A stretch of DNA of 64,000 nucleotides from an uncultured Candidatus Saccharibacteria bacterium (GCA_963530135.1 CAUSBS010000003.1:40373-104372), one strand, 5' to 3'. Positions 40,352-63,839 are shown, numbered from the stretch's first letter. The notes: generated by a model not told the origin, from the letters alone. A program made the numbers and translations.

Positions 40352-42508
40352 CTACTCAAACCGTCGCCGCAGCGTGATAATGTCCATCCGCGCTAAGTCC
40401 TCGGTGGGCAGCTGCCGCATATATTCAATTACCCGGGCTGCCAGCGCCGGATCAGGACAATCATCCCTGATTGACGGCTGCCGACCAGTCTGCAGTGCCG
40501 CCAGCGCTGTTCGCATCTGCCGCCAAAAGGTATAATAATCAAGCTTAATCTTGACGTGATGACCACCAGCATCTTCGAGCACAAAGCCCTCAACTCGCTC
40601 ACCCTGCCACCGATACGCCATGCCGTGAAGCTGGCCAAACCACGTCATAAACTCCCTCCACGACGAAAACTCCGCCGCCAGACGCTTGCTGTTCGCCCCG
40701 ATCTCGCGTGCAAATCGCTCCCGCTCCTGCCGATCGACCGCTTCGTATGCAACCTGACGCTTGACGATATCGAGCAGCACCAACTTGTCTGACTCATACG
40801 CGATAATATGCGGATCAAATCGCGGCAACACAACCTCAAACAATAGGCACGCATTATGACGGCGCAGATAATCAGTAATATACGGTAGTTTGTCTCGAAA
40901 TTGCTCCAAAAACTCTCGCCGAAAGGCTGCTGCATAGTCACCCTCGGTCGTCGACTTTGACGCGATCACCAACCCGCCCGCCGCCGAATCATACCCGACC
41001 AACCCCAAAAAGCCATTCTCCTTCACCCACGCCCGCACCGGAAAGGCCATCGTCTGCTCCAGTGCCGCTAGTTCAGTATCGCGCCGCTCGCCGATGTTAA
41101 AAAACTTATCATAGGCCCGAATCACGATTTCGTTTGTCAGCGTATTGAGAAACAGTCCGCGCGCTCGCATCGTCTGCGTCGTCCATGCTTGGCGATAAAA
41201 TGCCTCGGGCTTGAAATTAAACGAGCTGATATCACCCGGCAGAATTGATTCACGAATGTAGCGATTCTGCCGCAGCTGGCTTAGGAACGCTGCGTTTTCT
41301 GGATACAGCCGCGCTGCTGCCTGTTGATTTTGAATAGCGATCGGTGTCATGCCATTCTCGTCCAGCCGCACTGTTCGCAGCTCGCCGCCAAACTCAACCT
41401 TTCCCTCCAAATTGTAGCACCGTTCGTTGTACCGCGTAGGGTAATTTTGCCTATTGCGATGTCCATGAACCTGAAACGTCGCATCATCAGTCTGCGCCAT
41501 AAATGCATTATCCACCGCCCCAACCTCATCATACGCCCCCACGCCATGGATCAGCTGGCTGGTCGCCACCAATGGTAACCGCTCCGGCAGCATACTAAGT
41601 CCACCATGCGTCACCAACACTGTTTGCCCTCGAAATTGGTACAAAATATATTGATCCATCCGCCGCATCAGCCGTGCTACCTTACGCTTATCAATACCTG
41701 CCGCCTCCAGCTGTGGCTGCGTTTGTTCGCTAAATACCCGCGCCGCAACCGGCTGATCGGTTGCCCACTGCCAGAGATACAGCTCGTGATTACCCTCGAC
41801 GAACCGCACGTTTGGCCGGTCAAGCAACTCGTCACAAACAAATCGCATCACCGCATCATTCTCCGTGCCGCGATCTAATAGATCACCGACAAAAATATAC
41901 AGTTCATCATCCCGAAGCGGATACCGCTCGAAATATTCCTTCAGCGGCGTAAAGCACCCCTGCACATCGCCGATATGATGAATCGCCCGATACCTATCAA
42001 CGTTCTCTGGCTGATTGGTAAGCAGCTGATTCACCTCCTCAGCCGTCCGCACCACCGTCACCCATTTCGGCAGTGAACTTCGCTGCAGTCGCCGATGCAT
42101 ACGCTCAAGCACACTACTCGGCACCACCTTATGGCTCGGCCGCTCCCTGTTACGCTCTTGACACACCGCCAGCGGTACATCGGCAAAATCAATCACCACC
42201 AGCCGGTAGCGATATTTCCGACATAGCTCGCCGTACGTCTTGAAATAATTTGGCGTCGTGTGTGTTGCATCAACCACCGTCGTCTCACCCCGCGTCATCC
42301 GCTGCTCCAGCATCTCGTGTAATAGCCGCCACACCATTGCATCCTGACGCGACGGCATGGTCGTTTGTCCGTCAATCATCAGCTGCGGCGACGCCAGCAT
42401 CAGCCGTATCATGTCCGGCGACAGCGTATAATTATCAAGCCCCTGTTCCGCGAGAAACGTCGACTTACCAGAGCCGGGAATCCCTCTGGTTACCAGTAAC
42501 AGCCGCAT
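40352..42508 (-). CDS. trifunctional polynucleotide 5'-kinase / 2',3'-phosphatase / ligase-type nucleotidyltransferase (bacterial Pnkp-like RNA repair enzyme)
   Basis: P-loop GIPGSGKST. Calcineurin-type motifs GDVQGC, GDLLDRG, GNHE, THGG and HGH. Ligase motifs I VKENG, III LLFEVV, IV EGFVLE and V HVKIK. Confidence 0.7.
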   Translation of the reverse strand: MRLLLVTRGIPGSGKSTFLAEQGLDNYTLSPDMIRLMLASPQLMIDGQTTMPSRQDAMVWRLLHEMLEQRMTRGETTVVDATHTTPNYFKTYGELCRKYRYRLVVIDFADVPLAVCQERNRERPSHKVVPSSVLERMHRRLQRSSLPKWVTVVRTAEEVNQLLTNQPENVDRYRAIHHIGDVQGCFTPLKEYFERYPLRDDELYIFVGDLLDRGTENDAVMRFVCDELLDRPNVRFVEGNHELYLWQWATDQPVAARVFSEQTQPQLEAAGIDKRKVARLMRRMDQYILYQFRGQTVLVTHGGLSMLPERLPLVATSQLIHGVGAYDEVGAVDNAFMAQTDDATFQVHGHRNRQNYPTRYNERCYNLEGKVEFGGELRTVRLDENGMTPIAIQNQQAAARLYPENAAFLSQLRQNRYIRESILPGDISSFNFKPEAFYRQAWTTQTMRARGLFLNTLTNEIVIRAYDKFFNIGERRDTELAALEQTMAFPVRAWVKENGFLGLVGYDSAAGGLVIASKSTTEGDYAAAFRREFLEQFRDKLPYITDYLRRHNACLLFEVVLPRFDPHIIAYESDKLVLLDIVKRQVAYEAVDRQERERFAREIGANSKRLAAEFSSWREFMTWFGQLHGMAYRWQGERVEGFVLEDAGGHHVKIKLDYYTFWRQMRTALAALQTGRQPSIRDDCPDPALAARVIEYMRQLPTEDLARMDIITLRRRFE

Positions 42509-46702: not shown

Positions 46703-49258
46703 ATGCAGCTAGCCAAACAATACACCCCAAACGATTACGAACCAAACGTTTACGCCATGTGGGAAACCAGCGGCGCACTAGAGCCAACCGGTGTCGGCCA
46801 ACCATACTCCATCATCATGCCGCCGCCCAACGCCAACGGCAATCTACACATTGGCCATGCCCTAGACATGAATTTAAAGGATATCTTGATTCGTTATCAC
46901 AGGTTAAAGGGTGATGATGCGGTGTTTATTCCTGGGGCAGATCACGCCGGCTTTGAGACATGGGTAGTCTACGAAAAAGAACTGGCAAAACAGGGAAAAA
47001 GCCGCTTTGACTTTTCACGTGAACAACTGTACGACCAAGTTTGGCAGTTTGTCGAGGAAAAACGCGGCAACATGGAATTGCAGCTGCGAGCTCTGGGCGT
47101 CAGCGCCTCATGGCCACATCTAACCTTTACATTGGACGATAAAGTCATTGCCACGGTATATGAAACATTCAAAAAACTATGGGATGATGGGCTGGTTTAC
47201 CGCGGTGAGCGGATTGTTAATTATTGCACCAAACACCAAACTAGCTTTGCTGATATTGAGGTTGAACATAAAAATGAAAAAGGGAAGTTGTGGCAAATCG
47301 CCTACCCAACGCTGGATAAAATTGGCGAGATTGTCATTGCCACCACACGACCAGAAACCATGCTTGGCGATGTAGCAGTGGCTGTTCACCCAGATGACGA
47401 GCGTTACAAACACCTCATCGGTACGCGAATTCTCCTACCAATCACCAACGAGGAAATCCCGATCATCGCCGACGAGTATGTCGATATGAATTATGGTACT
47501 GGCGCAGTGAAAATTACACCAGCGCATGACCCGAACGACTTTGAAATGGCCGGGCGCCACAACCTACCGCTCAAGCAGATCATTAGCCAAAAGGGCACCA
47601 TGATCAATGTGCCAGAGCAATTTGTGGGTCTGACACCAGCAGAAGCCCGCACCCGCGTGCTGGCAGCCCTAGAGTCGCTCGAACTACGCCGCGGCGAGAC
47701 AGACATTGAGCATGCTGTCGGACACTGCTACAAATGTGGCAGTGTCATCGAGCCCATCGTCAAAGAACAATGGTTCATCAAGATGCAGCCACTAGCACAA
47801 CCAGCCATTGAAGCGCTCGAAAGGGAAGAGATTACCTTTTACCCAGCTGCTAAACGCAAAGAGCTCATCGCTTATCTCAAGCAGCTGAAAGACTGGAACA
47901 TCTCCCGGCAAATCCCGTGGGGCATTCCGATTCCGGCGTTTGTCAATGAGAATGATCCGCGTGATTGGATATTTGATATTCGCACCGGTGAACAAAAGAT
48001 TGTTGTAAATAGCACAACATATATCAGGGAAGAGGATACCTTTGACACCTGGTTCTCATCTGGACAGTGGCCATATATCGTTACCGATTATCTAAATGGC
48101 GGGGAACTAGCCAAATATTTCCCAACCAGCCTGATGGAAACCGGCATGGACATTATGCGGGCGTGGGTAGCGCGCATGATTATGCTCAGCCTGTACCGCA
48201 CTGGCAAACTACCGTTCAAGGACGTCTATCTGCACGGCATGGTGAATGATGAGCATAATCAAAAAATGTCTAAATCCAAGGGTAATGTCATCAATCCAAT
48301 GGAACTGGTTTCACAATTTGGCTCAGACGCTACCCGCATGGGTATTATCACTGGTCGTGCACCGGCACAACACCAAGCCTTCAACAAGGGCGCGGTCATC
48401 GCTGCTCGCAACTTCTGCAATAAACTATGGAATATCGCACGCTTCGTCGAGGCGCAAATTGGCGATGAACATCAAATCGTTGACCTGGAGCCGCAAACGC
48501 CGGCCGACCACTGGATTATCCGCCAGCTGAACGACGCCGCCAATAACGTCGCTATCCGCCTAGAGCAGTACCGCTTTTCTGAAGCTGCTGACACGGTCTA
48601 TCACGCTATCTGGGACGACTTAGCCGATTGGTACATCGAGTCATCAAAAACTGCCATCAACCGCCCACTGCTGTCATGGGCACTGGCAACCAGCTTAAAA
48701 ATCGCTCATCCGTTCGCGCCATTCGTCACCGAGACGATTTGGCAGACACTTAATTACACCGACGGTATCTTGATGCGTGATCACTGGCCAACACCAGAAA
48801 AATTCGACCCCATCGCTGCCGAGCAGTTTGAGCAGCTAAAGACGCTGGTCGCCGAAGGCCGCTGGGTAATTGCTGAGCTGCCGGGCAATAAGAAATATCG
48901 CTTGTTATACGGCAATGATAGCCTCATCGCCGATAATCAAGACACCATCAAACACCTTATGCGCCTGGAATCAATTGCACACACCGACCAGCCACGTGGC
49001 CTTAGGCTGGCAGCAGCAAACAGGGAAGCATGGCTCGATATTGATGAGGAAACGCTCTATCAGCACCAAACCGACCTCGAGGTGCGGCTAGGTGAAGCGC
49101 GGCAAACCTTGTCAACTCTCCAAGCACGACTGGATAACCCAACCTACATCGAAAAGGCACCAGCCCATCTCGTTGAGGAGACTCGCCAGCAACTAGCCGA
49201 GCAAGAAAAGCTCATCCAGCGCTTTATCAGCGAACTCGACGTTATCAGCTCACGCTAA
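46703..49258 (+). CDS. valS: valine--tRNA ligase
   Basis: Contains PPPNANGNLHIGHAL and KMSKSKGN, plus a CP1 editing domain and a C-terminal coiled coil. Confidence 0.96.
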   Translation: MQLAKQYTPNDYEPNVYAMWETSGALEPTGVGQPYSIIMPPPNANGNLHIGHALDMNLKDILIRYHRLKGDDAVFIPGADHAGFETWVVYEKELAKQGKSRFDFSREQLYDQVWQFVEEKRGNMELQLRALGVSASWPHLTFTLDDKVIATVYETFKKLWDDGLVYRGERIVNYCTKHQTSFADIEVEHKNEKGKLWQIAYPTLDKIGEIVIATTRPETMLGDVAVAVHPDDERYKHLIGTRILLPITNEEIPIIADEYVDMNYGTGAVKITPAHDPNDFEMAGRHNLPLKQIISQKGTMINVPEQFVGLTPAEARTRVLAALESLELRRGETDIEHAVGHCYKCGSVIEPIVKEQWFIKMQPLAQPAIEALEREEITFYPAAKRKELIAYLKQLKDWNISRQIPWGIPIPAFVNENDPRDWIFDIRTGEQKIVVNSTTYIREEDTFDTWFSSGQWPYIVTDYLNGGELAKYFPTSLMETGMDIMRAWVARMIMLSLYRTGKLPFKDVYLHGMVNDEHNQKMSKSKGNVINPMELVSQFGSDATRMGIITGRAPAQHQAFNKGAVIAARNFCNKLWNIARFVEAQIGDEHQIVDLEPQTPADHWIIRQLNDAANNVAIRLEQYRFSEAADTVYHAIWDDLADWYIESSKTAINRPLLSWALATSLKIAHPFAPFVTETIWQTLNYTDGILMRDHWPTPEKFDPIAAEQFEQLKTLVAEGRWVIAELPGNKKYRLLYGNDSLIADNQDTIKHLMRLESIAHTDQPRGLRLAAANREAWLDIDEETLYQHQTDLEVRLGEARQTLSTLQARLDNPTYIEKAPAHLVEETRQQLAEQEKLIQRFISELDVISSR

Positions 49259-49601
49259 CTGGATCAACCATCAACCGATGCCCATCAATATCGCCATCGC
49301 CGCCGCGACTAACGAGCTTGGTATGCAGATGCTTGCGGTCAGTGCTGCGCGGCGTTGTCCGTGGATTGGTCTGTCCGTCCTTTAGCACCCCCGAAAAATC
49401 ATGATGGTCAGAGTGGGTATGTGGCGAGGAGTGGGGCTTGGTGTGATGATGATCATCATCGACCTGATACACATCACTCATAATCCGCCAGGCGGAAACA
49501 ACCGCTTTATCAATATTTGTATCGTGTAAAAATACGCCGAGGCTAGTTGATACGCCAAACGCCATGGTGGCAGTGGTGATAATTTGTGGTAAATATTTCA
49601 T
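49245..49601 (-). CDS. hypothetical exported His-rich protein
   Basis: Signal-like N-terminus, then DDDHHHTKPHSSPHTHSDHHDF. It has a 14-nt convergent overlap with valS. Confidence 0.4.
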   Translation of the reverse strand: MKYLPQIITTATMAFGVSTSLGVFLHDTNIDKAVVSAWRIMSDVYQVDDDHHHTKPHSSPHTHSDHHDFSGVLKDGQTNPRTTPRSTDRKHLHTKLVSRGGDGDIDGHRLMVDPVSVS

Positions 49602-53249: not shown

Positions 53250-53300
53250 CCCATAGAGGCGAAAAGCACGAAACTATCAAATCAAACTACTGTAAAAACT

Positions 53301-53323
53301 AACCCCCGGAAACACCGGGGGTT
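53301..53323. terminator. bidirectional terminator between hsp20 and the pilin operon
   Basis: AACCCCCGG-AAACA-CCGGGGGTT forms a perfect 9-bp stem. Confidence 0.7.
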
Positions 53324-53344
53324 ATAAAGATCCTGGCTTATATC

Positions 53345-53725
53345 CTACGAGCCAACACCAGTAGAGGTGATCAGGACGAAGTTAACAATAGCATAGGCAA
53401 AGATTGCAATCACCAGACCAATCACCGCGTACATAATGGTGTTTTTGGCAGTAGTTACCTTACTTGAGTCGCCAGATGAAGTCGTGTAAAGGATACCACC
53501 CCAGATCAACATCACCACCGACAGAATACCGACAAAGTAGAGAATACCGTTGACGACATTCTTGACGAGATCATTCGGACGATCAATACCAGCGGCCGCA
53601 CCCTCGCCCTTAGCGGCTTCTGCACCATTCCTGAGCGTATATTGTGCGTTCGCTACTGGTACTGTTGCAAACGCCAGCACCGTCATAGCGAGTACGCCAG
53701 CGATCATAACTTTGAGTTTATTCAT
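53345..53725 (-). CDS. T4SS-type pilin-like protein, paralog 1
   Basis: Signal peptide ..TVPVANA|Q. Module reads LYFVGILSVVMLIWGGILYTTSSGDSSKVTTAKNTIMYAVIGLVIAIFAYAI. Confidence 0.7.
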   Translation of the reverse strand: MNKLKVMIAGVLAMTVLAFATVPVANAQYTLRNGAEAAKGEGAAAGIDRPNDLVKNVVNGILYFVGILSVVMLIWGGILYTTSSGDSSKVTTAKNTIMYAVIGLVIAIFAYAIVNFVLITSTGVGS

Positions 53726-53783
53726 GTATTACTTCCTTGTTTAGGGTTAATGTCACTTCAGCTGTTATTCTATCATTATTTAG

Positions 53784-54158
53784 CTACTTAAACAAGCCAA
53801 AGACCCAGTTAACAATAGCATACGACAGCACCACCACAATGATACCAATCACCGCGTACATGATGGTGTTTTTGGCAGTAGTTGCTTTTTGGCTATCGCC
53901 CGACGAGGTGATATATTGAAAGCCGCCCCAGATCATGATAATAACTGCTATCGCACCAACAAAATAGAGAAAGATATTCACTACATCACCGATAGTAGTG
54001 CCGATAGGCTTCGTGCTCATCTCCGGTGTTCGAGCTGCCTCAACACCCTTAGTAAACTGAGCCGAGGCGGATGGCAGAGCAACTGGCGTTACGGCCGCCA
54101 CAATAGCGACCACCAGTGATAGAGCAGCGGCTATAAGGGGGTTTTTATATCGTTTCAT
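53784..54158 (-). CDS. T4SS-type pilin-like protein, paralog 2
   Basis: Start set at ATG 54158 behind an AAGGAG SD. Signal peptide ..LPSASA|Q. Module reads MIWGGFQYITSSGDSQKATTAKNTIMYAVIG. Confidence 0.7.
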   Translation of the reverse strand: MKRYKNPLIAAALSLVVAIVAAVTPVALPSASAQFTKGVEAARTPEMSTKPIGTTIGDVVNIFLYFVGAIAVIIMIWGGFQYITSSGDSQKATTAKNTIMYAVIGIIVVVLSYAIVNWVFGLFK

Positions 54159-54174
54159 ACATTTCTCCTTTTTC

Positions 54175-54540
54175 TTATATTTTGCCAAATACGAAGTCAA
54201 CAATAGCGTAGGACAGCAGCGCGACTGCAACACCAATCACTGCGTACATGATCGTTGACTTAGCAGCCTTGACCTTGCTCGAGTCGCCAGCCGAGGTTAC
54301 GTACTGAAAACCGCCAACAATAATCATGATAACGGAAACTGCGCCGAGAATTAATAGAACGGCATCGACAAGATTCTTAAACAACGGCTGTATCGTTGCG
54401 CCACGGTTTTTACAAACCTCACCACTAGAGCCCGAGCAGGCACCGTAAATATCGACGCTCTGGGCAGATGCGCTTGATGCTACGACTAGCGGAGCAATGA
54501 GCGCTGCCATCATACCGATAATCACTACGAGTTTTTTCAT
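54175..54540 (-). CDS. T4SS-type pilin-like protein, paralog 3 (Cys pair in variable region)
   Basis: Signal peptide ..ASSASA|Q, Cys pair in GACSGSSGEVCKN, and module IIVGGFQYVTSAGDSSKVKAAKSTIMYAVIG. Confidence 0.7.
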   Translation of the reverse strand: MKKLVVIIGMMAALIAPLVVASSASAQSVDIYGACSGSSGEVCKNRGATIQPLFKNLVDAVLLILGAVSVIMIIVGGFQYVTSAGDSSKVKAAKSTIMYAVIGVAVALLSYAIVDFVFGKI

Positions 54541-54842
54541 ATTGCCGATCCTTTCATGCCACTAATGACAAAGTTAGTTATGAGAAACGCAGAGAGAATG
54601 ATGATGATGCCGATTATTGTGCCAAGGATGGTATTTTTCGCCTTCACAACATTATTGCTATCACCACCAGCCCGAACATAATTAATACCAGCAATCACTA
54701 GCATCAAAATTGCAATTGCCCCGGCAAAGAAATACACCGTATTGAGGATACTGCTAAGCGCATCCGTCGAGGCATTATTTGTCGGAATGCCGAGTGAGTC
54801 TGGCGATCCCAATAATCCAGCCACAAAGCGCATCAACGTCAT
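54537..54842 (-). CDS. T4SS-type pilin-like protein, paralog 4 (no evident signal peptide)
   Basis: Module reads LVIAGINYVRAGGDSNNVVKAKNTILGTIIG. ATGA overlaps occur at both ends. Confidence 0.6.
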   Translation of the reverse strand: MTLMRFVAGLLGSPDSLGIPTNNASTDALSSILNTVYFFAGAIAILMLVIAGINYVRAGGDSNNVVKAKNTILGTIIGIIIILSAFLITNFVISGMKGSAI

Positions 54843-55297
54843 GATCGCGGTAACCCCAATCCGTCGGCTATAATGTTCACCAAGGCAACTGAAGCAATCG
54901 CAATCACCAGACCGATAGCCGCATTGATTACTGTTTTCATACCATTCGCCATTTGGTTTGCATCACCGCCACTTGTCAGATACAGGAAGCCGCCATAGAT
55001 CACAAAACCAACCGTCACAAAACCAGCCAACTGCAATAAATCCTCGACAACGTTCAAGATGACCCGCCAGATGAAACCGCTGAGTGTCGTGTGATTGTTT
55101 GGGTCATTTTGGGCGCGCTTATCACTATTGTCAACGACCGCCTTGATACTACAGTCGTCCTTGGTTAGTCCGTCATACCACGGCTTGAGCGTTAGAATAT
55201 TGCCGCCACAGGCCGCATTGGCTGGCGTTGCCTGAAGCATCGACATCATCAACGACCCCGCAATCATCAGCCCAAGTGCAATCACAAGGTGCTTCAT
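54839..55297 (-). CDS. T4SS-type pilin-like protein, paralog 5 (Cys pair, longest variable region)
   Basis: Signal peptide ..ATPANA|A, Cys pair in CGGN..DDCSIK, and module VIYGGFLYLTSGGDANQMANGMKTVINAAIG. Confidence 0.65.
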   Translation of the reverse strand: MKHLVIALGLMIAGSLMMSMLQATPANAACGGNILTLKPWYDGLTKDDCSIKAVVDNSDKRAQNDPNNHTTLSGFIWRVILNVVEDLLQLAGFVTVGFVIYGGFLYLTSGGDANQMANGMKTVINAAIGLVIAIASVALVNIIADGLGLPRS

Positions 55298-55674
55298 CAG
55301 AACACTCCTCCCGGGATCAGGAAATTAGTGATGGCTACAAAAAATGCAAAGATAAGGAGGCCGATAGCAGTGTTAGCCCAGAGATCTTTGGCCTTTTTAA
55401 TATTTTCTGGGCTACCACCGGCAGCAGAGTAGAGAATACCACCAAAGATAACCGCGCCAACCGCCAGAATACCGATACCGGCAGACATGATTTGGATGAC
55501 AATTTTAATAATGCCGAGAATGGCAGCGTCACCAGTTGCACCGCCACAATTAATGATCGAGGTCGGTGCATCGCCACATTTACTCTCGGCAAATGCAACA
55601 CCGCCAGATAACATGGCGCCGCAGGTAATAGTCGTGAGGAGGGCAGTAGTGATGAGAATATTTCTTTTTGTCAT
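55297..55674 (-). CDS. T4SS-type pilin-like protein, paralog 6 (Cys pair)
   Basis: Start set at ATG 55674. Signal peptide ..GGVAFA|E, Cys pair in KCGDAPTSIINCGG, and module VIFGGILYSAAGGSPENIKKAKDLWANTAIG. Confidence 0.65.
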   Translation of the reverse strand: MTKRNILITTALLTTITCGAMLSGGVAFAESKCGDAPTSIINCGGATGDAAILGIIKIVIQIMSAGIGILAVGAVIFGGILYSAAGGSPENIKKAKDLWANTAIGLLIFAFFVAITNFLIPGGVF

Positions 55675-55695
55675 ATACGGATCTCTTACCCTTAA

Positions 55696-55724
55696 ATTGT
55701 AAAATAGCGGCAGGAAAAATGCAA
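55696..55724 (-). promoter_or_regulatory. candidate promoter of the pilin operon (TTGCAT-17 nt-TACAAT)
   Basis: Minus-strand hexamers at 55724..55719 and 55701..55696. Confidence 0.45.
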
Positions 55725-55732
55725 ACGATTTC

Positions 55733-55761
55733 TTGAAAAAGTCATAAAAGTTTGCTATCAT
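55733..55761 (+). promoter_or_regulatory. candidate promoter of tRNA-Asp (TTGAAA-17 nt-TATCAT), back-to-back with the pilin promoter
   Basis: Hexamers at 55733..55738 and 55756..55761. The tRNA 5' end lies 12 nt downstream. Confidence 0.5.
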
Positions 55762-55773
55762 ACGAAAAGTTAT

Positions 55774-55851
55774 GCGCCCGTAGTGAAGTTGGCCTATCAC
55801 GCCTCCCTGTCACGGAGGAGATCGCCGGTTCGAATCCGGTCGGGCGCGCCA
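55774..55851 (+). tRNA. tRNA-Asp(GUC), CCA encoded
   Basis: Hand fold: GCGCCCG acceptor, anticodon stem CCTCC/GGAGG with loop CUGUCAC, T-arm GCCGGTTCGAATCCGGT. Confidence 0.88.
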
Positions 55852-56048
55852 GAATGAGAATGTTACTACCCGAGCAGCCCATCTTTGTAGAGCAGGGGCT
55901 GTTTTTGTTTACTTTATTGCCGTTAGGGTATTGCTAAATATACAGAATGTGTTACAATAATATTATTCAGAGTTCCAATTATCTACTCTGAGGTGGATTA
56001 AAACTATCATGTGACTGGCCACCGGCCAGAGAAAGGACTCCAAGCGTT

Positions 56049-57020
56049 ATGGAAAGACACGACCATGACCCAAGTAGTTCATTAGAAGGAAACAGATTAA
56101 CTCGTCGCGGAGTGTTAGCTGGGGTTGTCGGCGGAGCAACAATGCTGATTGTTGGCTGCGGTAAGGATCGTATGGCTGTTCCCCCTGATTACTCTACACG
56201 AAGTGCTTCACCATCAGAATCACCATCCACCTCACCATCACCATCTGAGACTGTTGATCCGGAAGTGGCGGCACGAATGCGGGCCAGAGAAGAATACGAA
56301 GAACAAGTAAAAAAAATTGATGAAATACCGTACGACGAATTCATTAAGCTACCGCCAGAGGAGAGAAACAAGATTCTCCAAGCAGAAATCAACTACATGG
56401 AGAAGTCTGGCCGCGCAAAAGATAAAACAGATCATATACTCTACCCAAAAGACAGTCTGCCCTTTGGTGACTATTATAAGAAGTCACCTGCGGACCAAGA
56501 CCCAAAAAAGATGCTCACTGATCCGTTTCTTGCTGTCCAATTTGCCCTCTATGGAAGGTTTACTTACACAGATGACGATATAAAACAAAACTACGAGGAT
56601 TATGCTAAAAAGTTAGTCTCAGAAGCCTTTTTGAATCCCCAAATGGACATGGATAAGCTGCTTGAGGAGATGCGGGCCGGCAAAGTCTCGGATGAAGAGT
56701 ATTTCGCTAAACGTAAAGTAATGGAGCTCATTCATAAAAGAGCAGAGCAGATTAGGTCTAACTCCGGTAGTTCCGAAGACGACGTCGAGCTCTGGAAAAT
56801 GAAAGACATTGAGGGCTTTCCTGTCGATCAGTCGGATGTAGTGGTTGACCCCAAAACGGGCAAGCCGCTTGAGACACATATCACACACTTCTATTCCTAC
56901 GACGGGGATAAAAGAGGCTCTACTCCAGATGGCCAATTCTACACAATTGCTTCGGATCCAACAGTGAATAGGTGGAAGATTGCAGGATCTTCACACTCAG
57001 GCCCCGTTCTCTCTAGATAG
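56049..57020 (+). CDS. predicted Tat-signal lipoprotein of unknown function
   Basis: The N-terminus has a twin-arginine motif TRRGVLAG followed by the lipobox LIVGC and a Ser/Pro-rich linker. Confidence 0.55.
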   Translation: MERHDHDPSSSLEGNRLTRRGVLAGVVGGATMLIVGCGKDRMAVPPDYSTRSASPSESPSTSPSPSETVDPEVAARMRAREEYEEQVKKIDEIPYDEFIKLPPEERNKILQAEINYMEKSGRAKDKTDHILYPKDSLPFGDYYKKSPADQDPKKMLTDPFLAVQFALYGRFTYTDDDIKQNYEDYAKKLVSEAFLNPQMDMDKLLEEMRAGKVSDEEYFAKRKVMELIHKRAEQIRSNSGSSEDDVELWKMKDIEGFPVDQSDVVVDPKTGKPLETHITHFYSYDGDKRGSTPDGQFYTIASDPTVNRWKIAGSSHSGPVLSR

Positions 57021-57104: not shown

Positions 57105-60100
57105 ATGCTTACGCAAAAAAAGACCCTGCATCAACGCATTCGCATTACCTTGGTTGGGCTTGCTGCACTATTGATCATTCCGATGCTCATGACGTTTTTT
57201 GTATTGTCGCCGACCGCTAGTGCGGCTCGAACTCCGCTTGATTATTCACCACAGCTCACACAGGTAAAGCAGCTTCTACTTGCTCGTGCCATGAGAATGT
57301 GTATCATTAATGGTAATGGCGGCCCCGGATTTGGCGGAAATCTTACTGCAGAACGGATAGCACGCGGTGACTGGGGTGGGAGCTTTACCACCACCGTCGG
57401 CCCGATTCTTGATGGTGATAATGATGGACAGTTTGACTGTAAAGAAGTGGTATCCGCTACTCGAGATGTATTCGGCTATAGCTCTTTTATCGATATGTTT
57501 TGCGCCCTAAAGGGTGAGTGGCGAGATGATGCCAATCTCGATTGTCTCAGTAACATAGGCAAACCAGAATATAGTGGAGACAAGTGGAATATACCGAAAG
57601 ACAGAGGTGTATACGCAATTCAAGTTCTTGAAAAAAAGGGCGGCAGAAGTCTCAAGTTTGATTCAGCACTGGTCAACTATTCACTAGCTATGTCAGTACT
57701 CTTATCAGGCCAAAATCTTGGCTGCAAGGCTGAGTGGCGAGGATTTACTAGTGGTGAAGGTGCGCCAGATAACATTAGGGATCTTTTAAGGGGTGAGAAT
57801 AATAGGCCGGTGAATATTGCTTTAGCTGATGGCACATCGGCAGAGGGGCTTTATTATATCCCAAACCTAAATAAAAAAGTGAGGTTATCTTCCAAAGTTG
57901 AATCACCCTATGACCTTCCCGATGGCGTAAAGCCAGATATGTCGTGTGAAGAGATTGCAGCATGGGCATCAAGGAGTGCCGAGGGAGCGGCGCAATCAGC
58001 AAAAACCGACTCTACTGAAAATACCCGTAAGGCTATCCGTAGCGCCCTTATAAAAAGGTGTGTCCAGTCACGAGGTGGAGGACCTGCACAACAAATTTGC
58101 GAAAGTCAGGTTGACGGCTGGATGAACGCATGTAAAGACAAGATGCCGTCAAGCGGCGCTGTGGCAAACTCCAGCGAATATATTAAATGTATTGCTGATC
58201 AGTCTGGGTATAATGAAAAAGAGATTAAAGACACCCTCTCTAACGTCTCTGCCGATCCCCCTGCTGCCCAGAATAAGAGTGATGAAAAAAAACCAGAGTG
58301 TGCCGTCAAGGACCTTGGCTGGCTCATTTGTCCGGTCGTTAATTTCTTAGCTGATATTTCGGATGCAGCTTTTGCCATGATCGCCGACAATTTCCTAAAG
58401 ATTGAACCAGGCATCGCCTCTGGAGGCGAGGTACAGGCAGCCTGGGGAATTATGCGCAACATTGCCAATGGTGCATTTATCATCATGTTCCTGGCAATTA
58501 TCATATCTCAGCTCACTGGCTTTGGAATCTCAAACTACGGCATTAAAAAGATGCTACCGCGACTCATTATCGCCGCAATCCTCGTGAACTTATCGATTTA
58601 TATCTGTCAAATTGCCGTCGACCTGTCTAATATCCTTGGCTATGGTCTGCGCGCTGGGCTCGGTAATGTTGGTGACGAAATTGCCCGGGCAAATGAAATT
58701 TTTCAATCAGGTCAAGGGCGTGGTACATGGGGAGGGTTTGCACTAACTATCCTCGCCGCAGGCACCGCCGGGATTCTCGCCCTCGCAGTCTTGATAGGAG
58801 CACTCGTTTCGGGGCTAGTTGTTATGGCAACCATTGCCGTATTGCTAATCGCCCGCAAAGCACTTATTGTCATCCTTATTGTCATCTCGCCGCTTGCTTT
58901 TGTCGCCTTTCTACTACCAAACACCGAAAAATTCTTTAGTAAATGGCGCTCCATCTTTGTGGGGCTACTCATGGTCTTTCCAACAATCGGCCTACTGTTC
59001 GGTGGTGGTATACTGGCAGGAGCCATTGTTAAGGCCGGAGGTGGCAATGACACAATCATGCAGATTGTCGGTGAGCTAATCAAAGTCCTGCCGCTCATCG
59101 CCGTATGGAGTGTTCTCAAAAAAGCCATTGATGTCGCTGGATCAATCAGCCAACACATCAATAATGCCGGCGGCCGCCTCAGTGGCGGCGCCAGAAATTG
59201 GGCAAAGGGTGCATATGACAACTCCCGACTTGGTGAAATGGAAAAATTCCGCAAACAGCGGCGACAACGCCGCAAGGCCCTCATGCGAGCCGGGGCATGG
59301 AAGGGTGATGGGGCTATTGATAGAATACCCGTCATCGGAAGAAATGCAAGAGCCAGACGCAGCAAGGCATTCAACGAAAGTGTCTTTGCAAACAATCGCT
59401 TCCTCGGAGGAGACTATGGTATTCGTAGTGCTGCAGAGGGACAGGACGCGGTCGACGATGAAGAACGCAAGACAGCAGAGCGTATGCTCGACTATCGATA
59501 CAATGGCGATGCAGCTGCTGCGCTGAGGAGTGCAGGGGATAATGAAATGCTCAAGTATGTTGCTTCTAAAAAGCTTGCATCAACCGGCAAGCATGGCGCT
59601 CAGCAGATGTATGACTATCTCCAAAGCGGTGGAACTATCAGTACCCGCCGCATGGCAGAATCCCTCGTTAGTATGGAGCAGTACCATGCCGGACTATTTG
59701 AGATGGGTACAAGCGCTATTGACCAAATGGAGCAGCATGGAGCAACAACCGTCAGCTTTAGTCCACAGCAAATGGCCGAGTTGACCGCCAAGGGACTTAA
59801 TGGGTTGAGTGATGAAAAGCTAGCACGACAAGCATCTGGTGCAGTTAAGATTGCTGGTGAGACTGAGTTTACCAAGGGCGGCCAGAGAATGGTCGGTATT
59901 TCTGCCGAGCGGGCAGGCTCACTGCTAGATAATAAGCGTGTTAATACCTCAATATCAAGTAGTACACGTGCTGAGTTTGAGAATATACGAAACGGTGGCG
60001 GTAGAGCAGCCGAACCTCAGGAGCTACGAGTGCCACATGATATGAGCGGTGTCTCAGCAGCTGATGTTAAGAATACGATCAACGCCACAACGGAAATTCA

Positions 60101-60266
60101 TAACATCACCGAGGCAGTCCCGTCAGACACCCCAACGGGGCGAACGTTTGTCGCCGGAACAGGGAGGGGGCCAGCTCCACCACAACCACAATCTCCATCC
60201 CCAGCACCAGCTGATAATCAAAATAACCGTAACAATCGGAATAATAATCCGCCGACAACCAGCTAA
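57105..60266 (+). CDS. giant VirB6/TrbL-like polytopic membrane protein, paralog A (Cys-rich ectodomain, cytoplasmic C-terminal domain)
   Basis: N-terminal signal/anchor, a ~380-aa domain with ~14 Cys, then a multi-TM core (GISNYGIKKMLPRLIIAAILVNLS) and a long soluble C-terminus ending in a Pro/Asn-rich tail. Confidence 0.55.
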   Translation: MLTQKKTLHQRIRITLVGLAALLIIPMLMTFFVLSPTASAARTPLDYSPQLTQVKQLLLARAMRMCIINGNGGPGFGGNLTAERIARGDWGGSFTTTVGPILDGDNDGQFDCKEVVSATRDVFGYSSFIDMFCALKGEWRDDANLDCLSNIGKPEYSGDKWNIPKDRGVYAIQVLEKKGGRSLKFDSALVNYSLAMSVLLSGQNLGCKAEWRGFTSGEGAPDNIRDLLRGENNRPVNIALADGTSAEGLYYIPNLNKKVRLSSKVESPYDLPDGVKPDMSCEEIAAWASRSAEGAAQSAKTDSTENTRKAIRSALIKRCVQSRGGGPAQQICESQVDGWMNACKDKMPSSGAVANSSEYIKCIADQSGYNEKEIKDTLSNVSADPPAAQNKSDEKKPECAVKDLGWLICPVVNFLADISDAAFAMIADNFLKIEPGIASGGEVQAAWGIMRNIANGAFIIMFLAIIISQLTGFGISNYGIKKMLPRLIIAAILVNLSIYICQIAVDLSNILGYGLRAGLGNVGDEIARANEIFQSGQGRGTWGGFALTILAAGTAGILALAVLIGALVSGLVVMATIAVLLIARKALIVILIVISPLAFVAFLLPNTEKFFSKWRSIFVGLLMVFPTIGLLFGGGILAGAIVKAGGGNDTIMQIVGELIKVLPLIAVWSVLKKAIDVAGSISQHINNAGGRLSGGARNWAKGAYDNSRLGEMEKFRKQRRQRRKALMRAGAWKGDGAIDRIPVIGRNARARRSKAFNESVFANNRFLGGDYGIRSAAEGQDAVDDEERKTAERMLDYRYNGDAAAALRSAGDNEMLKYVASKKLASTGKHGAQQMYDYLQSGGTISTRRMAESLVSMEQYHAGLFEMGTSAIDQMEQHGATTVSFSPQQMAELTAKGLNGLSDEKLARQASGAVKIAGETEFTKGGQRMVGISAERAGSLLDNKRVNTSISSSTRAEFENIRNGGGRAAEPQELRVPHDMSGVSAADVKNTINATTEIHNITEAVPSDTPTGRTFVAGTGRGPAPPQPQSPSPAPADNQNNRNNRNNNPPTTS

Positions 60267-60290: not shown

Positions 60291-62921
60291 ATGCTACCAT
60301 TTCTAGTAATGGAGTGGTTACGTTCACAAGGGCGATCATCAATGCGATGGTTGCAGTGGTTCATATTGCTGGCGGCAGGTCTCCTAGTCAGTATTTTTTT
60401 GAGTACAGTCATAACCTCGAGCCAGGTATCGGCGGCAGATGCAAAGTGGGATAGCAGTAAAATATCCTACGACAACGAGACGTTTGAACGGGTTTCTGAT
60501 GCTGACAAACTAAAAGCCCTCGATTTAGGTGCGGACCAGATGGTCTACATGCCTAAGAAAACTGTGGCCAATAACCAAGATATTCGGGTTGTCCACTTTC
60601 CATCAACGGGCGACCTTGGGTCAATGACCTCGGTGTCCCTGACGACATTTACGTATACTTCGCCAAACACTTACACAAAGAAAGAATCGACTACACTATC
60701 AATTGACCCACCGAGCCAAAACTCTGCATCTTCATGTGAGGTTGCTGGCGGTATCGGCTGGATTCTTTGTCCTGTTTCGGCGTGGCTGGCCAGCTCCATC
60801 GACTGGATGTTTGGGGTGCTTAAAGGGTTTCTTGTAGTGCCACCACTTCAGACGGGCAATCAAGCTAGCGGTATTTTTCTAGCCTGGAACATTGTTCGCA
60901 ATATCGCCAACAGCATTTTTATTATCATGTTCATAGTCATTATTTATTCACAAATTACTTCTATGGGCATCTCCAATTATGGTATCAAAAAAATGTTGCC
61001 TCGTTTGATTATCGCGGCACTACTGGTTAACCTATCATTCCACATATGCGCCATACTTCTCGATCTGTCAAACATCGCCGGAAGCGCACTTCAGGACATG
61101 TTCATGAACATTCGTAACACGGTCGCTACCCTGGGCGGGTCAGCGCCACCATCCGACCCCATGACCTGGCAAGAGGTTACTTTCCAGATTTTGGGCGGAG
61201 CTGCCGGTGGTACAGCACTGGCCGCCGGGCTGATTATGCGGGCTGAGCTACTTCCTTTTGTTGTGCCACTTTTAACCGGGCTCAGTTTGGCGCTTCTTCT
61301 CGTGGTCGTTATCATGGCCGCTCGACAAGCACTAATTATCATTTTAATCATTGTTTCGCCGCTAGCTTTTGTGGCTTACTTACTGCCGGGGACAGAAAAG
61401 TGGTTTGATAAATGGAAGGATGTCTTCTTGACGATGCTGATATTCTTCCCGGGTTTTGCGGCAGCCTTTGGTGGGGCACAGCTCGCAGGCTCAGTCATTA
61501 TGCAAAACGCCGCGGGACCGAACGGGGCGGTGATGTACATCCTCGGTATGGCAGTTCAGATTGCGCCACTCGCTCTAACGCCGTTGATGATCAAGTTAGG
61601 TGGTGGGCTCCTCGGTAAATTCACCGGCCTGGTTAACGACCGCAGCAAGGGATTGTTCGACCGATCTAAGAACTGGGCAAAAGAGCGAAGCGAGATTACT
61701 AAGCGTAAAAAACTCAACAAACGTCCAAACAGCAAGTTTACCCCAACGGCATGGCGACGCAGACTGGCGCAGTCGTCTCAAAATCGTAAGGATATGCTCA
61801 AAGAGTTGCAAGATGAATCTGATGTTATACGAAGGGGGACTGGTTCCTATGCTAAGATTGATCAATACCGACGAATGGTTAACGAAGATAAAAAGGCTAA
61901 TGAGGGTCGGCTAGAGGACGCTTGGGGCAATCATCTGATGTCTAATTCTGCCGCCTTTGACCGATATGCACAAGCACAATCATGGTCTGAGCAGGCTGAG
62001 GCTTCTAAGGGAGCGGTTGATACTCATTATAAGTCGATGCGGGCACTCAAGCCTACCCAGACTAATGAGTTGTCTTCGTCGTTCCAAGAAAGCCTGGAGC
62101 GTGCCCGAGGAGCAGCGCAGCAAGTGGCTCTCCAGGGCCTGCAGAACGCTTCATCGCAGCGTGTTGCTGATGATCGATGGGCAAATGAATTGAAAGAAAA
62201 CGAGACGATGCGCGATCTGGCTGGACAGGTCGAACAAATATACTTCGGTGACAGTCGCGGTGCCGATCGAGCGATTGCCATGGCAGAACAAACGCTCAGC
62301 AATGCCTACAACGAAGGCGTCGAGAGCGCAAATCGCTTACTTGATCGATACAATGCCGATGAGTTTGACATGGTAGACATGGCTCTTGGTACTGTTGGCA
62401 GCGAGGTCAAAGGCATTACTGTCACCAGAGATGTCAAGGCTGCATCACTTCGCCGCGTTCTTGGCGGTAAGAACATTAAAGCCATTAAGTCGTTAACAAG
62501 CCAGCTTGACTTTGCTCACCTTGACGATGCCCTCGCCCAAGAAGCTGGCGACGCTCTCAAGAACAACCCAGCACGACCGTTCTGGATCGGATCTTCAATT
62601 GCTAATAAGATTAAGATTAATAATATGCCGTGGTCTGGCCAAGAGTTTATCACCCAAACGACCATTAAGGCACTTAGCGAGGATAAATTGTCGACCGAAG
62701 GCCTGGTCACGCAAGACGCTGTCTATCTTAATACCTTGGCCGATATGATTGAAAATTCAAACTTCCGAGGACAAATTTCACAACAGCATCTTCAGATTCT
62801 GCGCGACCGACTAAATGAGGTACAGACGGTTCCGCAGTACAGCGGTCGTATAGGTGAAAGTATCGGTGCAATTAAGCGAATGGAGGCGGCTCTTTCGTAT
62901 CTGCCGCCAACAGAAACCTAA
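60291..62921 (+). CDS. giant VirB6/TrbL-like polytopic membrane protein, paralog B (ATG 60342 behind AAGGG is the likelier start)
   Basis: Shares the core with paralog A (GISNYGIKKMLPRLIIAALLVNLS; GWILCPV versus GWLICPV). The ecto- and C-terminal domains differ. Confidence 0.55.
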   Translation: MLPFLVMEWLRSQGRSSMRWLQWFILLAAGLLVSIFLSTVITSSQVSAADAKWDSSKISYDNETFERVSDADKLKALDLGADQMVYMPKKTVANNQDIRVVHFPSTGDLGSMTSVSLTTFTYTSPNTYTKKESTTLSIDPPSQNSASSCEVAGGIGWILCPVSAWLASSIDWMFGVLKGFLVVPPLQTGNQASGIFLAWNIVRNIANSIFIIMFIVIIYSQITSMGISNYGIKKMLPRLIIAALLVNLSFHICAILLDLSNIAGSALQDMFMNIRNTVATLGGSAPPSDPMTWQEVTFQILGGAAGGTALAAGLIMRAELLPFVVPLLTGLSLALLLVVVIMAARQALIIILIIVSPLAFVAYLLPGTEKWFDKWKDVFLTMLIFFPGFAAAFGGAQLAGSVIMQNAAGPNGAVMYILGMAVQIAPLALTPLMIKLGGGLLGKFTGLVNDRSKGLFDRSKNWAKERSEITKRKKLNKRPNSKFTPTAWRRRLAQSSQNRKDMLKELQDESDVIRRGTGSYAKIDQYRRMVNEDKKANEGRLEDAWGNHLMSNSAAFDRYAQAQSWSEQAEASKGAVDTHYKSMRALKPTQTNELSSSFQESLERARGAAQQVALQGLQNASSQRVADDRWANELKENETMRDLAGQVEQIYFGDSRGADRAIAMAEQTLSNAYNEGVESANRLLDRYNADEFDMVDMALGTVGSEVKGITVTRDVKAASLRRVLGGKNIKAIKSLTSQLDFAHLDDALAQEAGDALKNNPARPFWIGSSIANKIKINNMPWSGQEFITQTTIKALSEDKLSTEGLVTQDAVYLNTLADMIENSNFRGQISQQHLQILRDRLNEVQTVPQYSGRIGESIGAIKRMEAALSYLPPTET

Positions 62922-62945: not shown

Positions 62946-63839
62946 ATGGCTGTCTACAAAGTTCCTCAGGATGTGGAAGCTGATGACAAGCTGCTCGGGC
63001 CGTTTAGTTTCAAGCAGTTTGTTTTCCTGATCGTTGCGGTCGGTATGATTGCGCTGGCATGGGGACTGTTCTCGGTGCTGCCGCCACTAGCGATTATCCC
63101 GGTGCCGATTGCGCTGTTTTTTGGGGCATTAGCCTTGCCGCTGCGCAAGGATCAACCGATGGAGGTTTACCTCGCGGCAGTCATTTCGTTTATGCTCAAA
63201 CCCAAGCAACGGCTGTGGCGAGCCGATGGTACCGAACGAATGGTCGAGGTGATCGCCCCGCGGGTTGAGGAAAAACAATACGGTAAGGGGTATGATCAGG
63301 CTGAGGTTAATCGCCGGCTATCATACCTGGCGACACTGGTCGATACACACGGCTGGTCGGTGCGCGGCGTTGATAATCCAAACAGTTCGGTAAGGGGTAG
63401 CTCGATGCAGGCGGACTGGTATAATGAAGCCCAAGCCGCTCAGGATCCACTCGACCCAAGCAGCAAGACCGCACGCGCCTTTGAAACACTGATTGAGCGG
63501 GCTGACGAAAAGCGCCATGATGACATTGTCCAGCAAATGCAGCGAGCTCAAACCGCCCAGCCAGCCACACCCGCTCAAGATGACCAAGCCTACTCTCTAC
63601 AAACCTCAACCTTCAACCCATATCCAACTATGCAGCAGTCTATTATCACCCCTATCGGCGAGCAATCGGCTACACCTGCCCAAGATGACCAAGCCGCGCC
63701 CCCTAGCACATCACCCGTGTCGCCTGCTATAATGGACTTAGCGCGTAATCACAGCGACCTATCAGTCGCCTCGTTGCAACGAGAGGCTGGCCGTATCCAG
63801 AAAGAACACGATAAGGAAGTAGTGATTTCGCTTCACTAG
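62946..63839 (+). CDS. PrgI/VirB3-like T4SS membrane protein with long disordered C-terminal tail
   Basis: MAVYKVPQDVEADDKLLGPFSFKQFVFLIVAVGMIALAWGLF resembles the PrgI-family N-terminus plus a TM hairpin. The tail carries two ATPAQDDQA repeats. Confidence 0.55.
   Translation: MAVYKVPQDVEADDKLLGPFSFKQFVFLIVAVGMIALAWGLFSVLPPLAIIPVPIALFFGALALPLRKDQPMEVYLAAVISFMLKPKQRLWRADGTERMVEVIAPRVEEKQYGKGYDQAEVNRRLSYLATLVDTHGWSVRGVDNPNSSVRGSSMQADWYNEAQAAQDPLDPSSKTARAFETLIERADEKRHDDIVQQMQRAQTAQPATPAQDDQAYSLQTSTFNPYPTMQQSIITPIGEQSATPAQDDQAAPPSTSPVSPAIMDLARNHSDLSVASLQREAGRIQKEHDKEVVISLH

Follow-up and report, generated by a model that had tools for sequence, protein, structure and literature searches.

Tandem arrays of small genes beside type IV secretion system (T4SS) genes are a known feature of Saccharibacteria and other Patescibacteria, and they have been read in several ways. 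In Nanosynbacter lyticus TM7x the array was described as a 'Sec-secreted array' of Ptx-like effectors (McLean 2020; PMC7427843), and a TM7x transcriptome paper, which reports transcription of several of the array genes, labels them 'effector genes'. The same genes were annotated as pilins in Ca. Southlakia epibionticum ML1 (Wang 2023, Cell; PMC10633639), where transposon sequencing (Tn-seq; Table S1) called SEML1_0014-0019 all essential (GD/ES/ES) and the unlinked pilin SEML1_0024 non-essential. A catalogue of 441 VirB2 arrays of 2-11 genes from 383 assemblies has since raised the possibility, taking antigenic variation in Bartonella and Anaplasma as the analogy, that the paralogues assist adaptation to hosts of different strains (Quiñonero-Coronel 2025; PMC12102498), and the arrays have been reviewed (PMC12857230). 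Here we describe six tandem genes of this kind (positions 53,345 to 55,674) and an unlinked seventh in a 64,000-nucleotide (nt) stretch of DNA, hereafter the window, from an uncultured Candidatus Saccharibacteria bacterium (GCA_963530135.1, CAUSBS010000003.1:40373-104372). The array and its multiplicity have already been published (PMC7427843, PMC10633639, PMC12102498, PMC12857230), and the preliminary description of the window is a correct rediscovery, the window holding another member of a catalogued family and not a new system. What the comparison of related genomes adds, and what narrows the hypotheses, is a set of conserved subunit classes, purifying selection upon them, a conserved translational coupling of the first two genes and a conserved leaderless member; the array is most likely an ancient fixed set of subunit classes and not a collection of interchangeable variants. 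This positional-class structure is not described in the accessible portion of the published array catalogues.

The source organism is an oral, Nanosynbacter-like Saccharibacterium; its nearest genomes, at 81-95% identity, are those of oral Saccharibacteria and Nanosynbacter-like metagenome-assembled genomes, among them the complete genome of oral taxon 488. The locus is very probably the pilin operon of a chromosomal monoderm-type (MPF-FATA-related) T4SS that is conserved throughout Saccharibacteria. Open reading frame (ORF) listing and direct translation place six tandem ORFs on the minus strand, running from 55674 to 53345, and the unlinked seventh on the plus strand (lengths in amino acids, aa; scores for the Pfam family PF18895):

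55297..55674, minus strand: pilin a1, 125 aa; signal peptide, C-x9-C tip, two-helix module, C-terminus IPGGVF; 26.6 bits
54839..55297, minus strand: pilin a2, 152 aa; signal peptide, longest tip (~47 aa) with a Cys pair and P-x-W-Y; 35.3 bits
54537..54842, minus strand: pilin a3, 101 aa; leaderless, short N-terminal tail with GIPT, then the module; 40.2 bits
54175..54540, minus strand: pilin a4, 121 aa; signal peptide, C-x7-C-K-N tip, module; 44.0 bits
53784..54158, minus strand: pilin a5, 124 aa; canonical, major-like, with its own strong Shine-Dalgarno (SD) sequence AAGGAG; 56.7 bits
53345..53725, minus strand: pilin a6, 126 aa; canonical, major-like, last gene of the operon; 50.9 bits
49999..50406, plus strand: pilin x1, 135 aa; unlinked, of the a5/a6 type; 38.3 bits

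The array of ML1 likewise consists of six tandem PF18895 genes, with a length order of 132/185/103/126/127/138 aa against 125/152/101/121/124/126 aa in the window, and in both organisms it diverges from a VirB6-like/PrgI/VirB4 cluster; after it come Hsp20, a ComF-like gene, tRNA-Ser and, on the opposite strand, an unlinked seventh pilin, with valS, FemAB, TsaD and MurE nearby. ML1 differs in belonging to another genus, in the reversed order of the small gene with the twin-arginine translocation (TAT) signal and the VirB6-like gene beside the array, and in that its a1 and a2, which overlap by 1 nt in the window, are separated by 26 nt; the experimental data come from ML1, whereas the window organism is known from its sequence alone. 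Because all six array genes were called essential in this syntenic array and the unlinked seventh was not, the paralogues are not redundant copies. The arrays of TM7x and of the wider Patescibacteria catalogue show the same general make-up, viz. 4-6 small signal-peptide proteins adjoining VirB4 and VirB6 and matching PF18895/PF04956 (PMC7427843, PMC12102498), with a mean within-array identity of ~25% and a maximum of 54%, compared with 27-49% among the window paralogues. Where the published readings were of effectors (2020) and of possible adaptation to host strains (2025), the comparison made from the window suggests fixed, distinct roles.

All seven proteins reach the gathering score of the T4SS_pilin family PF18895 in a Pfam search (E from 6e-6 to 3e-15; the threshold is 26.6 bits, and a1 lies exactly on it), a match to T4SS pilin profiles being one of the points on which the preliminary description had staked its reading. 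The TrbC/VirB2 family PF04956 (gathering score 27.9) gives 28.3 bits for a5, 25.9 for a6 and 23.3 for a3, with no match for the other four, and the NCBIfam profile NF045849, of 80 residues and with a cut-off of 40 bits, gives 51.6 bits for a5 and 17.7-38.1 bits for the remaining six. The grouping of six tandem paralogues with a seventh, as first proposed, is far beyond chance, since a hidden Markov model of the shared module picks exactly these seven ORFs in the window. The database relatives reported for a6 number 501, and PF18895 is present in 119 of the 120 matches listed. Together these profile matches support the assignment of all seven to the T4SS (VirB2-type) pilin family.

The two-helix module that had been noticed in these proteins is evident in their alignment as a hydrophobic helix followed by GG-x-x-Y-x-(T/S)-x-G-D, AK-x-T-I, IG and a second hydrophobic helix, with G66, G77, Y80, G85, I102 and G103 invariant, and the two long hydrophobic helices make up ~70 of the 100-150 residues of each protein. 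An AlphaFold2 model of a6 is a helix-loop-helix hairpin (helices 50-81 and 87-123; block-mean predicted local distance difference test score ~80-89). The paralogues of the array diverge most in their exposed N-terminal segments (the tips), which, with signal peptides and cleavage sites assigned by a hydropathy/AXA heuristic, measure ~16-47 residues from the predicted cleavage site to the module and not 20-70 as earlier given. These tips had been called mutually unrelated, which is true only in that not all of them are related; those of a5, a6 and x1 share the motif G-x-[EN]-[AD]-A-[KR]. The Cys pairs ascribed to a1, a2 and a4 (genes starting at 55297, 54839 and 54175 in the earlier numbering) are indeed there, each with exactly two Cys in the mature N-terminal segment, the third Cys of a1 being inside its signal peptide. 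Likewise a3 (54537) lacks a signal-peptide-like segment, as had been said, with a best 12-residue Kyte-Doolittle mean of 1.5 compared with 1.9-3.0 in the other six, and the ORF listing contains no in-frame start upstream of its start at 54842. An artefact of start-codon choice was considered for the missing leader and rejected, both on this ground and on account of the leaderlessness being kept in all lineages.

A search with the single a5 protein as query yielded 20 related genome loci (L001-L020), all from Saccharibacteria except one labelled Parcubacteria. A comparison of copy number across related genomes had been proposed, and it shows 5-7 tandem pilins with the same length order in 19 of these 20 loci, L016 ending at a contig end. 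Ten close relatives have the same gene overlaps as the window and best matches that are strictly positional and one to one, at 71-100% identity, and x1 is found at the same relative place in seven of them, i.e. those that extend that far. In the deep lineages, reciprocal best hits still pair a1 with its positional orthologue nearly everywhere, and a2 with its own everywhere except in the L017-L020 clade.

Each position of the array is marked by a signature of its own, the classes of a3-a6 in distant loci being assigned by motifs and by the absence of a signal peptide. Class a1 has a signal peptide, a C-x8-10-C tip and a C-terminal PGG(V/I)(F/L); class a2 has a signal peptide and C..LLG.P.WY.GL..DC.I (a motif kept from L011 to L015); class a3 always has (G/N/D)IP, and a signal-peptide-like segment is present in none of the 20 sequences at that array position; class a4 has a signal peptide and a C-x7-12-C loop, usually followed by (Q/K)N, with the Cys pair present in every locus; and a5, a6 and x1 are of the canonical type across loci. 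The PGG[VIL][FLIV] tail and CxnC occur together in 117 of the 120 a1 matches listed, and neither is found in any of the 120 a6 matches listed. In the L017-L020 clade, of which TM7-H1 is a member, a Cys-rich insertion of 160-230 residues (4-10 Cys) precedes the conserved FLGFPAWNRD motif of the a2-class pilin (L017, 8316..9107; L018, 7469..8464; L019, 7499..8467; L020, 7476..8468), which looks like an ectodomain grafted onto a pilin. Between oral relatives that otherwise resemble each other closely, the a6 tip comes in two allele types, QYNLRNGADAAKGDGAANGV and QYNLDRGISDSKGDRVAEKV, and the a6 orthologues of L007 and L009 (both 10434..10814) are 73% identical to that of the window, compared with 90-92% in the other seven oral-clade loci of L002-L010. 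These alleles are the only hint of diversification in the array.

Ratios of nonsynonymous to synonymous substitution rates (dN/dS; Nei-Gojobori method, window versus nine related species) are below 1 in every region. They are 0.02-0.09 for the modules of all seven pilins, and for the tips they are 0.006 (x1), 0.02 (a4), 0.05 (a3), 0.07 (a2), 0.19 (a1), 0.23 (a6) and 0.57 (a5), all of these being rough values because the tips span just 15-47 codons and several of the comparisons have a dS close to saturation. Column entropy is about twice as high in the tips (1.2 bits) as in the modules (0.6-0.7 bits), the tips being similar in this respect to the signal peptides. The earlier word 'hypervariable' thus suits the tips when paralogues are compared and fails when orthologues are, which fall into conserved classes; judged from these substitution patterns the tips differ by paralogue and are under purifying selection, and only those of the major-like a5 and a6 look relaxed. 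Because every position combines a conserved class with purifying selection, the data favour a fixed set of non-interchangeable subunits over antigenic variation.

The idea that the paralogues are exchangeable versions of one surface pilin, serving antigenic variation or host-range switching as proposed for VirB2 of Anaplasma and Bartonella (PMC12102498), draws on several features of the array: the identity of just 27-49% between its members with the exposed segments most different, the doubled entropy of the tips, the two a6 tip alleles in close oral relatives, the a5 tip with the highest dN/dS, and a copy number of 5-7 depending on the lineage, together with the large Cys-rich a2 inserts of L017-L020. 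We nevertheless consider it improbable, as the orthologues at each position make up a class, recognisable by its signature, that is conserved through the deep Saccharimonadia lineages, tip dN/dS is 0.07 or less for four of the seven and exceeds 1 for none, the essentiality called for 6/6 array genes in ML1 is unexpected for exchangeable copies, and the genes form one translationally coupled operon and not separately switched cassettes. The antigenic diversification that the preliminary description had entertained is therefore not borne out, the classes being conserved over deep lineages and tip dN/dS ranging from 0.006 to 0.57. Anaplasma phagocytophilum and Bartonella, as cited in the catalogue, also have diverged tandem virB2 copies beside a host-interaction T4SS not used in conjugation, and the copies are thought there to serve antigenic variation or broader host interactions (PMC12102498), whereas those of the window are ancient positional orthologues under purifying selection, and in ML1 each array gene is called essential. 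The comparative result thus argues against the published idea of antigenic or host-range variation and predicts a defined multi-subunit assembly.

Such an assembly need not be an extended pilus. That the proteins are membrane-embedded or wall-spanning parts of the T4SS channel (a short pseudopilus, a stalk or VirB6-associated subunits) would agree with the general lack of a pilus in monoderm T4SSs (PMC12857230), with the fact that no filament has been reported, with the build of each protein, essentially two transmembrane helices and a small ectodomain, and with the related NF045849 family, an 80-residue hairpin of wall-less Mycoplasma. We regard this as rather unlikely, given the homology to pilins of the TrbC/VirB2 kind, which polymerise from a membrane-stored pool, and given six classes, including disulfide-bearing ectodomains, that exceed the obvious needs of lining a channel; it differs from the fibre reading mainly in polymer length and is hence not sharply separable from it. 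The older view of Sec-exported effectors or toxin-like subunits that are secreted by the T4SS, by analogy with pertussis ptx/ptl (McLean 2020; PMC7427843), can hardly be correct. The signal peptides of x1 and of all array genes but a3, the adjoining T4SS genes and the continued use of 'effector genes' in the TM7x transcriptome paper speak for it, but all seven proteins match pilin profiles and none a toxin family, two long hydrophobic helices such as theirs do not go with soluble toxin subunits, just 11% identity underlies the cited similarity to pertussis S1, and one member is wholly without a signal peptide.

Taking the array as a fixed set of pilin subunits, a major/minor heteropolymer mechanism is possible, and we stop short of calling it probable. 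Five of the six array proteins would be made with Sec signal peptides and a3 without a leader, and each pilin would enter the membrane as a hairpin of two helices, its variable N-terminal segment lying on the outside of the cell. The divergently encoded VirB4/VirB6/VirB3-like machine would then extract and polymerise the pilins, assisted by wall hydrolases of the M23/lysozyme type, to give a tube or short pilus spanning the envelope in the direction of the actinobacterial host. The bulk ('major') subunits would be a5 and a6, which come closest to the canonical form and each possess a ribosome-binding site, with x1 as a dispensable spare of the same type. The translationally coupled a1-a4, each with its lineage-wide signature, would be low-abundance specialised subunits (tip, initiation or adaptor) and could stand in for VirB5, which is missing from this system. 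More tentatively still, and with some doubt, we suggest that this may be the first heteropolymeric VirB2-type pilus, with at least five fixed, non-interchangeable classes (a1, a2, a3, a4 and a5/a6), in which an a1-a4 tip/initiation complex replaces VirB5. Few functions have been shown to be essential to Saccharibacteria living as epibionts, and the T4SS with its pilin array belongs to these; it is also the only known case of VirB2-like pilins in a monoderm system. DNA, proteins, nutrients and nucleotide uptake have been suggested as what this machine moves between parasite and host.

Several observations weigh against this picture. A T4SS-dependent filament has not been reported in any Patescibacterium, and reviews call the pilus a 'possibility' (PMC12857230). 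The major/minor assignment would follow from gene order, SD strength and sequence canonicity only, and the Tn-seq essentiality of the upstream genes may in part be a polar effect on the downstream genes of the operon. The positional orthology of a3-a6 is blurred in the BLAST reciprocal best hits of the most distant loci, which fall on various canonical copies owing to scores dominated by the shared module, and the roughness of the dN/dS values counts on the same side. Structure adds little, since a helical hairpin is not discriminating: a Foldseek comparison of the AlphaFold2 model with the PDB gave no match with E<1, its top entries being generic helical hairpins (CnrX, ATP synthase subunit c), and a profile search of PDB sequences gave one non-significant match only, to ubiquinol oxidase (E = 0.36).

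With the TrbC/VirB2/TraA pilins (PF04956) the window proteins have in common a signal or leader peptide ahead of a hairpin whose two helices are joined by a short, polar loop containing Lys, a weak but real profile similarity (a5, a6 and a3) and linkage to VirB3, VirB4 and VirB6 homologues. In the canonical systems a single pilin gene goes with a VirB5 tip protein and the outer-membrane core VirB7-10, whereas here there are six or seven pilin classes in a monoderm envelope, without VirB5 and VirB7-10 and with no coupling protein or relaxase nearby (as seen in the related loci L021-L023, described below; PMC12102498). In type II secretion system pseudopili and in type IV pili, one abundant subunit is accompanied by several conserved, low-abundance, co-encoded paralogues, some of them disulfide-bearing, that prime assembly or cap the fibre. 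The proposed a1-a4 complex may parallel these minor-pilin complexes in an unrelated fibre system; the analogy would be one of function, neither fold nor assembly machinery being related, with a T4P-type pilin and a prepilin peptidase on the one side and a VirB2-type hairpin with Sec and signal peptidase I on the other. The Mycoplasma proteins Mbov_0395/MMCAP2_0565 (NF045849), which belong to integrative and conjugative elements, are also hairpin proteins of a monoderm MPF-FATA-type system, and all seven pilins match their profile, a5 above the cut-off; they differ in being the bare module, without signal peptide or tip. We know of no report of multi-gene arrays of these Mycoplasma proteins. 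The profile matches suggest that VirB2-like hairpins exist in a monoderm MPF-FATA-type system, and they bear on the statement that MPF-FATA lacks VirB2 homologues (PMC12102498).

The layout of the operon is compact. The a1 and a2 genes overlap by 1 nt (TGATG) and a2/a3 and a3/a4 by 4 nt each (ATGA), in agreement with the chain of 1- or 4-nt overlaps first noted for the four upstream genes, whereas a4/a5 and a5/a6 are separated by 16 and 58 nt and a5 and a6 each have their own SD. The IPGGVF end of a1 is encoded by CCG GGA GGA GTG TTC TGA TG (55297..55320, minus strand), in which the Gly-Gly codons are the SD for the overlapping a2 start, and this stop/start overlap with an embedded GGAGG-type or G-rich SD is present in the window and in 19 of the 19 related loci with an intact junction (L001-L015 and L017-L020). 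Conserved translational coupling of a1 to a2 is thus plausible on direct sequence evidence. Of the fixed-ratio co-translation originally suggested, the coupling can be retained, a1 to a2 being conserved with its embedded GGAGG, and the fixed ratio cannot, overlaps implying no defined stoichiometry. Two flanking signals make it probable that the six VirB2-like genes share a single transcript, which would start from a promoter near 55700 and end at a terminator at 53300:

55696..55725, minus strand: candidate sigma-70-like promoter, TTTGCA-18-TACAAT, a consensus match only, 22 nt upstream of the a1 ATG at 55674
53300..53324, minus strand: strong intrinsic-terminator-like hairpin with a 10-bp stem (7 GC pairs) and a T-run, beginning 20 nt past the a6 stop

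The longest ORF for a1 starts at a GTG at 55800 (55297..55800, minus strand) and overruns the tRNA-Asp gene on the opposite strand (55774..55851, plus strand); a longer a1 form of 154 aa is used by some gene callers, e.g. in L021. The ATG at 55674 is the credible start, since the GTG start runs into tRNA-Asp and the ATG has the promoter-like site upstream.

Beyond the tRNA-Asp gene, a T4SS cluster diverges from the pilin operon, and four of its genes lie in the window:

56049..57020, plus strand: TAT-like/lipobox protein, first gene of the divergent T4SS operon, 323 aa, with an LTRRGVLAG motif and then the lipobox LIVGC
57105..60266, plus strand: extended VirB6/TrbL-like polytopic membrane protein, 1053 aa; PF04610 TrbL at E=6e-4, below the cut-off
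60291..62921, plus strand: large T4SS-cluster protein, 876 aa, no Pfam match; its position corresponds to SEML1_0011, called essential
62946..63839, plus strand: PrgI-family (VirB3-like) protein; PF12666 at E=4e-12

The first of these has no Pfam match, and the same gene is found at the corresponding position in L021-L023, three loci with an identical PrgI protein. It is probably equivalent to ML1 SEML1_0012, a non-essential gene with a TAT-signal match and an NTF2-like (VirB8-like?) fold assignment (PMC10633639), with a different place in the cluster, SEML1_0012 being one gene further from the pilin array. An identical gene to that of the VirB6/TrbL-like protein carries a precomputed PF19590 TrbL_3 annotation. 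The genes past PrgI in L021-L023 are, in order, a TraC-like gene, those for a VirB4-like ATPase, an M23 peptidase of 1023 aa and a lysozyme+M23 protein, and dnaN. Neither a coupling protein nor a relaxase was seen in this continuation, and no VirB5 or VirB7-10 Pfam families were found in the cluster as a whole (window and L021-L023 continuation). By its gene content (VirB6-like, PrgI, TraC-like, VirB4-like, M23/lysozyme) the cluster is of monoderm architecture, and this neighbourhood supports the link between pilin array and T4SS. The VirB4-like ATPase of L021-L023 lies ~8.6 kb from the pilin array, and the six tandem genes of the window form a VirB2 array as defined for Patescibacteria, i.e. 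at least two PF18895/PF04956 genes, tandem or with one gene between them, near virB4 (Quiñonero-Coronel 2025).

A few other features of the window may be recorded. GC skew is -0.1 to -0.23 over most of 1-46 kb, -0.09 to -0.015 from 46-56 kb and weakly positive to near zero beyond 56 kb, at the divergence of the pilin and T4SS operons, and dnaN lies ~10 kb past the window end. The intergenic region 55675..56048, at the cumulative GC-skew minimum, was considered as a replication origin and is not claimed as one; it has no DnaA-box cluster, and the rightward skew is weak and noisy. A 718-aa protein encoded at 40352..42508 (minus strand) combines AAA_33 kinase, calcineurin-like phosphoesterase and T4-type RNA ligase domains, a layout which we take to be that of Pnkp-type RNA repair enzymes, here in a very small genome. 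Between valS and the tRNA-Ser gene, a 118-aa ORF at 49245..49601 (minus strand), with no Pfam match, contains the His-rich stretch DDDHHHTKPHSSPHTHSDHHD.

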